From positions 1 through 64,000 of the IMG/VR virus record IMGVR_UViG_3300020175_000005: a stretch of 64,000 nucleotides of DNA, one strand, 5' to 3'. Made by a program: the position numbers and the translations under genes. Within the stretch, counting starts at the first letter, position 1, and every line of letters starts with the position of its first letter. This DNA comes from a virus. The notes below the pieces were generated by a model, which was given only the letters and a program-made list of their open reading frames with translations, was not told the DNA's origin and did not search any database. Of the stretch, positions 28,241 through 62,837 are shown one piece after another.

Positions 28241-28280
28241 AATAATATCTCCTTTATTAACTGCTAATATTATTTATCCT

Positions 28281-28377
28281 TGGAGATGGGGAGGGAATCG
28301 AACCCTGCTTGAACACTCTGCTTCATCCGCCTGCCCTGGATTTAACGAAACAGCATAGCACACCTTGCCAGCCCATC
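28281..28377 (-). ncRNA. tRNA-like RNA with aberrant, extended anticodon arm
   Basis: GATGGG/CCCATC-T-CCA acceptor; T-arm AGGG-TTCGATT-CCCT; D-like hairpin TGGCA/TGCTA; 9-bp CTGTTTCGT/ATGAAGCAG arm. Confidence 0.7.
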
Positions 28378-28388
28378 AGTTGTATTTA

Positions 28389-28465
28389 TGGTACTCCCCG
28401 AGGGACTCGAACCCCCAACCAAAGCGTTATGAGCGCTCTGCTCTAACCAATTGAGCTAGAGGAGT
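28389..28465 (-). tRNA. tRNA-Ile2/Met (CAT)
   Basis: Cloverleaf, loop CTCATAA, CCA end; C4-G69 and C5-G68 suggest a TilS substrate (Ile2). Confidence 0.9.
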
Positions 28466-28472
28466 ATTATTT

Positions 28473-28560
28473 TGGCAGACAGGGTGGGATTCGAACCCAC
28501 GGAACCTTTCGGTTCGCCGGATTAGTAATCCGGTGCCTTAAGCCTCTCGGCCACCTGTCC
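28473..28560 (-). tRNA. tRNA-Ser (ACT)
   Basis: CCGGA-TTACTAA-TCCGG anticodon arm, long variable arm, G73, CCA. Confidence 0.9.
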
Positions 28561-28787: not shown

Positions 28788-28872
28788 TGGTACCCGCGGC
28801 CGGACTCGAACCGGCACGCCATGAAGGCCACAGATTTTAAGTCTGTTATGTCTACCATTCCATCACGCGGGC
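28788..28872 (-). tRNA. tRNA-Leu (TAA)
   Basis: Loop CTTAAAA, variable arm, CCA. Confidence 0.95.
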
Positions 28873-57110: not shown

Positions 57111-57111
57111 T

Positions 57112-57612
57112 GTGCGACTATTCTGTTGCTAGGTCAGTCGCCAACCCCCACGTGCTTAAATTAAGCCGCTAATGCCATTTCTGGCGCTTTATTTGCGTTT
57201 GCAATTAAAAAGTTTGTTCGCGGTAACGGCGCTTACATCCCGGTAACTCCACTCTTCTATCCTGCCTGTCGATCCTATTTCGACCCCATCATAAACACAC
57301 TATTCAAACCAAAGTAGGAAATCCATACTTCCTGTAATATTATATAATACGATTAGTATCATACAAAACCACAGTAGCCAAAATAACCAAAAGCCTAAAA
57401 ATCTGTACACCTTTTCCATAGGCAAATACTTTTCTAGAAGTGTAGTGATATCCCACACATATCTAAATTGTAGGAACCAACAAAACCATCTTACGTATTT
57501 GTTAGGTGTATTTTCTTTTGTTATCTTAGTCATTATTCCCTAATGTGTTTATGGTGGAGTCGCTGGGTACCGCCCCCAGGTCCAGTTCAGTCGTCAAATT
57601 GCTTCAACGTTA
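57112..57612 (-). ncRNA. ssrA: two-piece (circularly permuted) tmRNA
   Basis: Acceptor piece ...GGACCTGGGGGCGGTACCCAGCGACTCCACCA (CCA 57552-57554) precedes the coding piece GGGGTCGAAATAGGATCGAC (5' end 57287); G3-U70 pair; tag ANANKAPEMALAA* (57161-57202). Confidence 0.95.
57300..57533 (-). CDS. Trp-rich membrane protein inside the tmRNA intervening segment
   Basis: 77-aa ORF, AGGGA RBS, hydrophobic C-terminal half; stop codon lies in the closing stem. Confidence 0.65.
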   Translation of the reverse strand: MTKITKENTPNKYVRWFCWFLQFRYVWDITTLLEKYLPMEKVYRFLGFWLFWLLWFCMILIVLYNITGSMDFLLWFE

Positions 57613-57618
57613 CAATAC

Positions 57619-57626
57619 TATTTATA
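57619..57626 (-). promoter_or_regulatory. T4-like late promoter for the tmRNA
   Basis: TATAAATA just upstream of the acceptor piece; a TTGACA also lies at ~57644-57649. Confidence 0.7.
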
Positions 57627-57660
57627 ACATATGTATTCAGAGTTGTCAAGTATTAAATAA

Positions 57661-62761: not shown

Positions 62762-62837
62762 TGGTGCCCCCACACGGACTCGAACCGCGGACCTACTGAT
62801 TACAAATCAGTTGCTCTACCAGCTGAGCTATAGGGGC
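62762..62837 (-). tRNA. tRNA-Thr (TGT)
   Basis: Loop TTTGTAA, CCA. Confidence 0.95.

Follow-up and report, generated by a model that had tools for sequence, protein, structure and literature searches.

A Conserved tRNA-Like Gene with an Anticodon-Loop Hairpin and a Late-Type Promoter Box in One Lineage of Jumbo Phages

A 97-nt element on the minus strand of a viral genome fragment, at positions 28281..28377 of a 64-kb window (the whole 64,000-nt stretch of DNA analyzed), is a tRNA-shaped gene that is kept more strictly than the real tRNA genes around it, yet is non-decoding as encoded. Phage tRNA genes are usually attributed to codon supply or to the replacement of host tRNAs destroyed by defense nucleases. 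For this gene, the explanation we favor, at a probability of roughly 0.4, is that the RNA is made late and persists as a non-decoding tRNA look-alike that engages readers of anticodon loops or CCA ends, serving as a decoy or modulator. Were it such a mimic, it would be an RNA-level countermeasure or a regulator of tRNA-handling proteins.

The element, its surroundings, and its relatives

The window is part of a 98.5-kb IMG/VR record whose completeness CheckV puts at 27%. It has a GC content of about 38% and contains 17 ordinary tRNA genes plus a two-piece alpha-type tmRNA at 57111-57653. The carrier is a jumbo phage of Alphaproteobacteria, and the cultured phages nearest to it by the amidase next to the element, all of them on alphaproteobacterial hosts, are distant (no more than 39% identity). 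The element lies 11 nt 3' of tRNA-Met(CAU), where it closes a cluster of Arg, Leu(UAA), Ser(ACU), and Met genes that includes a canonical tRNA-Leu(UAA) at 28788-28872. Downstream are a small membrane protein, encoded by a holin-like open reading frame (ORF; 28240-28076, minus strand), and then an N-acetylmuramoyl-L-alanine amidase (28076-27222, minus strand). Between 27000 and 29400 we found no terminator-like site, and thus none separating the element from these lysis genes.

Using the amidase as a handle together with DNA patterns, we searched IMG/VR records and metagenome contigs for homologs and recovered full-length copies from seven other IMG/VR records and several metagenome contigs (one contig, L081, is the same as IMG/VR record 3300027571_000963). 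Copies that are full length and 90-93% identical are present at loci L006-L009, L073, L078, L082, L083, L091, L100, and L101, and beyond the window they fall into three sequence types: L006/L007; L008/L009 with L073, L078, L082, L083, and L091; and L100/L101. L100 belongs to G006, a 342-kb relative that is 92% complete.

The tRNA complement of this phage clade has further peculiarities. A 94-nt tRNA with anticodon UAU, A73, and a long stem-loop variable arm of type II occurs at L006:790-883, L007:789-882, and L009:800-893; the type II shape is normally restricted to Leu, Ser, and Tyr tRNAs. Two more tRNAs are 82 nt long: a tRNA(CAU) at L006:1553-1634, whose D arm is odd and whose variable region measures 10 nt, and a tRNA-Cys(GCA) at L103:3814-3895, with a variable loop of 12 nt. 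Enlargement of this region seems to be habitual in the clade. G006 has six tRNAs with a CAU anticodon and one with an amber-reading CUA anticodon (L103:2738-2812, labeled 'Pyl' by ARAGORN). In the window's own record TAG is the stop of 18 of 104 crude gene calls, so amber recoding is not evident there. At about 1538-1582 of L102 (minus strand), between tRNA-Pro and tRNA-Asp, is a tRNA 5' fragment with a D-arm-like GTAGCTCAGTTGGTTAGAGCA followed by TTAAATAAA; lying directly upstream of tRNA-Asp, it is the relic of a broken tRNA gene. A tRNA-Ser with the rare A34 anticodon ACU (window 28473-28560; L006:2145-2235; L008:194-284; L103:7966-8055) is kept in all three element-bearing lineages, its body only 71-87% identical across them despite the kept anticodon, and in the element-less relative L003 the tRNA-Ser anticodon is GCU instead.

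The gene was delimited from its sequence, by ARAGORN, and by a covariance model, R1, that gives the window element 116.7 bits and its relatives 112 to 127 bits. Its parts, all on the minus strand, run from G1 (28377) to A97 of the CCA (28281). The acceptor 5' strand GAUGGG (positions 1-6, 28372..28377) is invariant in all four variants, with six of six pairs holding, and is followed by a C.C mismatch between C7 (28371) and C87 (28291). A D region beginning U8 G9 (positions 8-25, 28353..28370) has two competing registers. The 5' strand of the anticodon stem, GUUUC (positions 27-31, 28347..28351), pairs with 28324-28320 and carries covariations. After it come G32 U33 U34 A35 A36 A37 (28341..28346; UAA is 34-36), the 5' part of an anticodon-loop-like sequence that is invariant across variants apart from one extra A in the stretch in L006/L008. 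A 15-nt hairpin, UCC-AGGGCAGGC-GGA (U38-A52, 28326..28340), is inserted there, its last 11 nt being GGGCAGGCGGA (28336-28326), and U53, which becomes position 38 once the insert is removed, leads into the 3' strand of the anticodon stem, GAAGC (28320..28325 with U53). The 13-nt variable region AGAGUGUUCAAGC (28307..28319) forms no stable hairpin and varies at C67 and C71. The T arm (28292..28306) has a 4-bp stem, AGGG/CCCU, and the loop UUCGAUU (28302-28296). The end of the gene, 28281..28290, consists of the acceptor 3' strand CCCAUC (28290-28285), a U discriminator (28284), and an encoded CCA (28283-28281), and is invariant. The acceptor, discriminator, CCA, T-loop, and 5-bp D-like hairpin (TGGCA-AGGTG-TGCTA) of the earlier note on this DNA are thus all in place. 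The folding energy is ordinary (z = 0.22), so the fold by itself proves nothing.

In Rfam the element has no listed tRNA match (RF00005, gathering score 29 bits), at the gathering score or at E values up to 10. The best match in the clan, tRNA-Sec (RF01852), reaches 17.8 bits (E = 0.44) against a gathering cutoff of 47 bits; it involves acceptor deletions, the element has no UCA, and tRNA-Sec would also call for an 8/5 or 9/4 stack. The T arm is that of a canonical tRNA, with GGG-UUCGAUU-CCC supplying the G53-C61 pair and a UUCRANN loop. A canonical 7-bp acceptor on a 5-bp T stem is not present: six acceptor pairs, the C7.C87 mismatch, and four T-stem pairs are stacked, with the 3' strand one nucleotide short. 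Among the core bases U8, A14, G18 G19, and A21, only U8 fits; in the canonical register G occupies position 14 and U position 21, with GG at 14-15, hence no A14/A21.

Assignment to a particular tRNA was equally unsuccessful. ARAGORN's tRNA-Phe(AAA) call over the 97 nt requires an anticodon stem with three G.U pairs and a mismatch and a variable loop of 26 nt, and its intron mode is inconsistent among the variants (Arg-GCG, Gly-UCC, Phe-AAA). The best identity to any candidate parent is 63%, against a background of 58.7 +/- 5.4%, and tRNA-Leu(UAA) is not among the 12 tRNAs closest to the insert-free element. The tRNA-Cys ancestry that had been suggested from U73 and GCA does not hold up, with U73 the only point in its favor: GCA sits in an 8- to 10-nt apical loop at a shifting offset and is not kept centered, and the insert-free identity to tRNA-Cys, 60%, is that of the background. 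The Phe and Cys readings both fall, since G006 has separate tRNA-Phe(GAA), tRNA-Cys(GCA), and tRNA-Leu(UAA) genes and the element is no nearer to any one tRNA than unrelated tRNAs are to one another. The long arm resembles helix 8 of the SRP (4.5S) RNA; the arm alone had no SRP match in Rfam, and we rejected mimicry of that helix.

The anticodon-loop insert

In the earlier note the anticodon arm was described as replaced by a 9-bp helix topped by TCC/GGA and a 9-nt loop with GCA at its center. Such a fold does exist, with both the long helix CTGTTTCGT/ATGAAGCAG and the TCC/GGA mini-helix present in the window element. The description counts A52 twice, however, and this base cannot close both helices; the centered GCA is true of the window's 9-nt loop only, L100 having 8 nt there and L006/L008 having 10. 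Canonical tRNA numbering fits the element better. After U8 and G9 comes a possible D stem, 10-13/22-25, that draws on the second UGC; U26 then precedes an anticodon stem of 5 bp (27-31/39-43), whose 5' strand is followed by G32-U33-UAA-A37. Rather than being replaced, the anticodon arm retains a normal, covarying 5-bp stem and a G-U-UAA-A loop interrupted by a hairpin of 14 to 17 nt. Since the hairpin U38-A52 is followed by U53 in this numbering, the insert lies at the classical 37/38 intron position.

Insert length varies (15 nt in the window, 14 nt in L100, and 17 nt in L006/L008), the junctions are constant, and the indels are confined to the 5' part, leaving GGGCAGGCGGA unchanged. This motif occurs once in the genome and has no convincing complement in the record, and we rejected a mobile or repeated hairpin and an antisense seed as its origin or function. 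As encoded, the loop region is 21 to 24 nt instead of the normal 7, with U33 and the covarying stem 27-31/39-43 present. In silico deletion of the hairpin (positions 38-52 in the window) yields the identical 82-nt cloverleaf in all four variants, with a 7-nt loop, G-U-UAA-A-U, and ARAGORN calls this insert-free form tRNA-Leu(UAA). The D arm of the gene can take either of two registers, a canonical stem 10-13/22-25 with an 8-nt loop or a shifted hairpin 8-12/18-22 with a 5-nt loop. Nearest-neighbor energies make the shifted hairpin more stable in the window, where position 13 is A; in the L006 variant, with U13, the canonical register is the minimum-free-energy fold and is lengthened to 7 bp. 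No covariation among the four variants discriminates between the two. Even with the insert removed, the gene departs from real tRNAs in its 6-bp acceptor, C.C mismatch, 4-bp T stem, U73, lack of A14/A21, and 13-nt unstructured variable region.

Because the insert is at 37/38 and its removal leaves a clean 7-nt loop, a spliced pre-tRNA is at least as natural a fit as a mimic. According to this alternative, the chief competitor of the favored explanation and in our view possible though on balance unlikely, the element would be an intron-containing pre-tRNA whose hairpin is cut out by a putative endonuclease and whose halves are joined by a phage Pnk/Rnl1 pair or a host ligase, producing a late 82-nt tRNA(UAA) for UUA and UUG. 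Those two codons make up 49% of the phage's Leu codons, and removal gives one common cloverleaf with a 5-bp stem, U33, and A37, the junctions staying fixed as insert length varies. Another tRNA of the clade is also interrupted. The tRNA-Thr(UGU) of G006 (L102:3393-3507, equal to G006:C1:70392-70506, minus strand) has a 42-nt hairpin-forming insert in its anticodon, at 35/36 or 34/35; it scores 53 bits in Rfam and is detected by ARAGORN in intron mode only, and its ortholog in the window (62762-62837) is uninterrupted. An Rnl1-type RNA ligase of G006 (L104:958-2088; PF09511, 91.7 bits) adjoins a P-loop AAA_33 kinase (L104:2238-2774), and the two look like a tRNA heal-and-seal cassette of the T4 kind. 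Lak megaphages are reported to have tRNA introns that are highly conserved and described as 'enigmatic' (PMC6784885).

Several observations speak against splicing. The 37/38 position is that of a protein-spliced intron, but the bulge-helix-bulge motif is absent, the insert being an ordinary hairpin that begins to pair directly at the loop, with no 3-nt bulge on the 3' strand. Neither an archaeal-type splicing endonuclease (tRNA_int_endo) nor RtcB nor Rnl2 was found in the 92%-complete G006. The exons are themselves non-canonical, with U73 in place of the A73 of the phage's tRNA-Leu, a 6-bp acceptor, a 4-bp T stem, and no A14/A21, and a normal tRNA-Leu(UAA) is already in the genome. Finally, invariance of the insert's 3' 11 nt would be unusual for a mere spacer. 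Self-splicing as a group I intron was rejected separately: introns of that kind in tRNA-Leu(UAA) are about 200 nt or more and sit at 34/35, and the 14- to 17-nt insert at 37/38 has no intron match in Rfam.

A more far-reaching form of the splicing alternative, and one we find less probable again, holds that these T4-like jumbo phages carry out protein-dependent tRNA splicing in a bacterium. A putative endonuclease would excise both the 14- to 17-nt inserts and the 42-nt insert of the G006 tRNA-Thr, and Pnk/Rnl1 would rejoin the halves, yielding a tRNA(UAA) that is specific to late infection, has a discriminator other than that of leucine tRNAs, and could be activated through splicing.

A late-type promoter box and a proposed late tRNA look-alike

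Directly upstream of the element is a late-promoter-like ATAAATA (28383..28389, minus strand; TAAATA core 28388-28383), which overlaps the terminal A of the preceding tRNA-Met CCA and is separated from G1 by the 5-nt spacer CAACT (28382-28378). TAAATA stands exactly 5 nt before G1 in every lineage, and the spacers themselves differ (CAACT, AGTTT, and GAATC): L006-type copies have CTAAATA-AGTTT-G, and the L100-type copy in G006 has a perfect TATAAATA-GAATC-G. Nor is the sequence ahead of the box shared: the box follows tRNA-Met in the window and tRNA-Ser in G006, and in L006 about 320 nt of other sequence precede it. Of the ordinary tRNAs in these genomes, three are preceded by a TAAATA no more than 30 nt away, each at another distance, and none has it at the 5-nt distance of the element. 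Across the genome, 34 of 38 copies of ATAAATA are on the gene strand, 21 of the 38 fall between genes, where just 9% of the DNA lies, and 17 lie within 60 nt upstream of a gene on the same strand. Among the genes of G006 is one for a gp55-type late sigma factor (phrog_12791, E = 5e-80), which matches T4 gp55 weakly.

Late promoters of T4 consist of a -10-like element alone (PMC7892883), and the box here has the same form, being a -10 element similar to TATAAATA that lies some 6 nt ahead of the putative start in a phage group with a gp55-type sigma gene. From the fixed distance of the box, the bias of the motif, the gp55-type sigma factor, and this T4 late-promoter form, it is a reasonable inference that transcription would begin at or beside G1 from the element's own gp55-type promoter. 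The late promoter predicted in the earlier note is thereby strengthened.

In the explanation we favor, the RNA would be transcribed late from this promoter and, with a start at or next to G1, would need no RNase P cut at its 5' end. It would then accumulate as a stable tRNA look-alike unable to decode, its anticodon loop obstructed by the hairpin and its acceptor/T stack of the wrong length for elongation. The RNA would most likely act by binding proteins that probe the anticodon loop or the CCA end of tRNAs. Candidate targets are host anticodon nucleases, other tRNA-directed defenses, or the phage's own Pnk/Rnl1 repair pair, so that the RNA would serve as a late-expressed mimic or decoy rather than as an adaptor. 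That it probably does not decode as made, which the first description had also anticipated, is supported by the loop of 21 to 24 nt where 7 would be normal, the lack of an Rfam tRNA match, and the presence of a canonical tRNA-Leu(UAA) with A73.

A second ATAAATA box (28271..28277, minus strand) follows 3 nt after the CCA, directly ahead of the holin-like ORF and the amidase. This box and its ribosome-binding site (RBS) are kept in the element-less relative L002 (L002:3788-3816; alignment score 32, versus 16 +/- 2.3 for shuffles), and the lysis cassette therefore has a late-type promoter of its own.

Read-through from the upstream box into the genes beyond would give the element a different role, as a tRNA-shaped 5' leader or processing module whose ends are cut by cellular tRNA-processing enzymes, thereby setting the 5' end and stability of a downstream late mRNA (for holin and amidase in the window). 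We consider this improbable. In its favor, the lysis cassette comes immediately after the element in the window and in L006-L009, no terminator-like site lies between the element and the downstream genes, and G006 has an ORF whose start is 12 nt beyond the CCA, without a box of its own in that gap. However, the downstream genes differ among lineages, the G006 ORF is not conserved elsewhere, and there is no conserved downstream partner gene; the conserved box of the lysis genes works without the element in L002 and L005; and a processing handle would need neither an invariant insert loop nor an anticodon-like loop.

Conservation and comparison with known RNAs

Between the three phage lineages the element is 90-93% identical, a level at which the adjacent amidase protein (about 60%) and most ordinary tRNAs of the same genomes are not kept: Ser(ACU) is 71-87% identical, Leu(UAA) 77-87%, Met 73-87%, and Arg(UCU) 90-94%. 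The changes that did occur preserve the structure. C31-G54 (31-39 in canonical numbering) has become U-A, and A72-U86 in the T stem (50-64) is U-A in relatives, both being double changes that keep the pair. U28.G57 in the anticodon stem has become U-A, and the third pair of the apical mini-helix has gone from C-G to U.G. T-loop substitutions are confined to positions 59/60 (UU to AC in L100), the remaining changes and indels fall in unpaired stretches only, and no change at all is seen in the acceptor stem, D arm, or GGGCAGGCGGA. Under either fold, 98.8 to 100% of pair cells are paired, compared with 42 to 58% when the partners are slid. With only four distinct variants the covariation statistics are weak: in the two tests, 57 and 30 out of 500 shuffles score at least as high as the real data.

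The distribution is patchy. The element is missing from the related lineages L002/L003 and L005, which retain the flanking genes, and a GATGGG stretch in L002 that might have been a decayed copy aligns with a score equal to the shuffle mean. It was not found in approximately 185,000 cellular species genomes, where the sole match to the model, L105, falls within a dxr coding sequence; the acceptor/T pattern had no match in the genome collection, and R1 had none in the T4 genome (NC_000866) at E values up to 10. Being absent from cellular genomes and from two related lineages that retain the flanking lysis promoter, the element is accessory in character. Conservation with pairing kept, patchy absence, and the lack of cellular and T4 matches together show a tRNA-derived accessory gene of one phage lineage under purifying selection, not a decaying pseudogene.

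These comparisons leave very little room for a dead tRNA gene, broken by a small insertion and kept without function by linkage or by recent spread between phages. Such an origin would suit the patchy distribution, the several deviations from the tRNA consensus, and the occurrence of relics in these tRNA clusters, like the 5' fragment upstream of the G006 tRNA-Asp. It is hard to reconcile with helix substitutions of which none breaks a pair (among them an A-U to U-A double transversion, either half of which alone would leave a mismatch), with T-loop changes at free positions only, and with a gene more conserved than functional tRNAs of its own genomes (90-93% versus 71-94%). The earlier note had held that random decay among homologs would mark a pseudogene; the identity and pairing seen across the four variants are the opposite of decay. 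Part of the high conservation could nonetheless come from recent phage-to-phage exchange rather than from selection alone, which counts against the mimic reading.

Least probable of all is an aminoacyl-tRNA-like donor for non-ribosomal chemistry (peptidoglycan or N-end-rule transfer), charged but kept off the ribosome: the intact CCA, the invariant acceptor, an odd acceptor/T stack that might avoid elongation factor, and proximity to a cell-wall amidase in two lineages would suit it, but no synthetase identity set fits (U73 without GCA for Cys or C35/C36 for Gly, no G3.U70 for Ala, no long variable arm for Ser), no transferase gene was found among the neighbors scanned, and the amidase linkage is not kept in G006.

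The late look-alike that we favor can be set beside several known RNAs. The tRNA-like domain of tmRNA also joins an acceptor and T arm to a long helix in the place of the anticodon arm, and the only other metagenome matches to the element's T-arm and 3'-end pattern were tmRNAs, which share that pattern alone. The element differs in having U3-A70 rather than G3.U70, U73 rather than A73, and no coding part, and paralogy with the phage's own tmRNA was rejected, its acceptor being unrelated. T4 likewise makes small RNAs, RNA C and RNA D, from its tRNA region, their roles unknown (PMC3014915); the likeness is one of context only, as the T4 genome has no match to R1. The canonical phage tRNA-Leu(UAA) shares with the element the loop core U-UAA-A, a place in the tRNA cluster, and an encoded CCA, but its loop is free of any insert, its discriminator is A73, its acceptor/T stack is 7/5, and its variable arm is long.

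Other parallels concern the insert. Pre-tRNA introns at 37/38 in archaea and eukaryotes lie where the insert does, with a single nucleotide between them and the anticodon, and Pnk and Rnl1, which heal and seal RNA, are related to the fungal and plant tRNA ligase Trl1 (PMC10946426). The element differs from those pre-tRNAs in having no bulge-helix-bulge, in coming with no splicing endonuclease found in the 92%-complete G006, and in having a bacterial host. A further parallel is offered by the Lak megaphages, whose tRNA genes, tRNA-Thr(UGU) among them, carry short, highly conserved anticodon-loop introns with an unexplained route of removal (Devoto et al. 2019, PMC6784885). The insert here is only 14 to 17 nt, and it sits in a gene with U73, a 6/4 stack, a 13-nt variable region, and its own late-type box; the Lak phages belong to a different clade and host phylum, and the likeness is one of description. 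In both groups, however, tRNA genes of huge phages are interrupted in the anticodon loop, and tRNA-Thr(UGU) is hit in both Lak and G006. If the hairpin is removed after all, non-self-splicing tRNA introns would be at work in the bacterial world, the T4 Pnk/Rnl1 'repair' enzymes would be linked to splicing, and the 'enigmatic' tRNA introns of megaphages would have an explanation.
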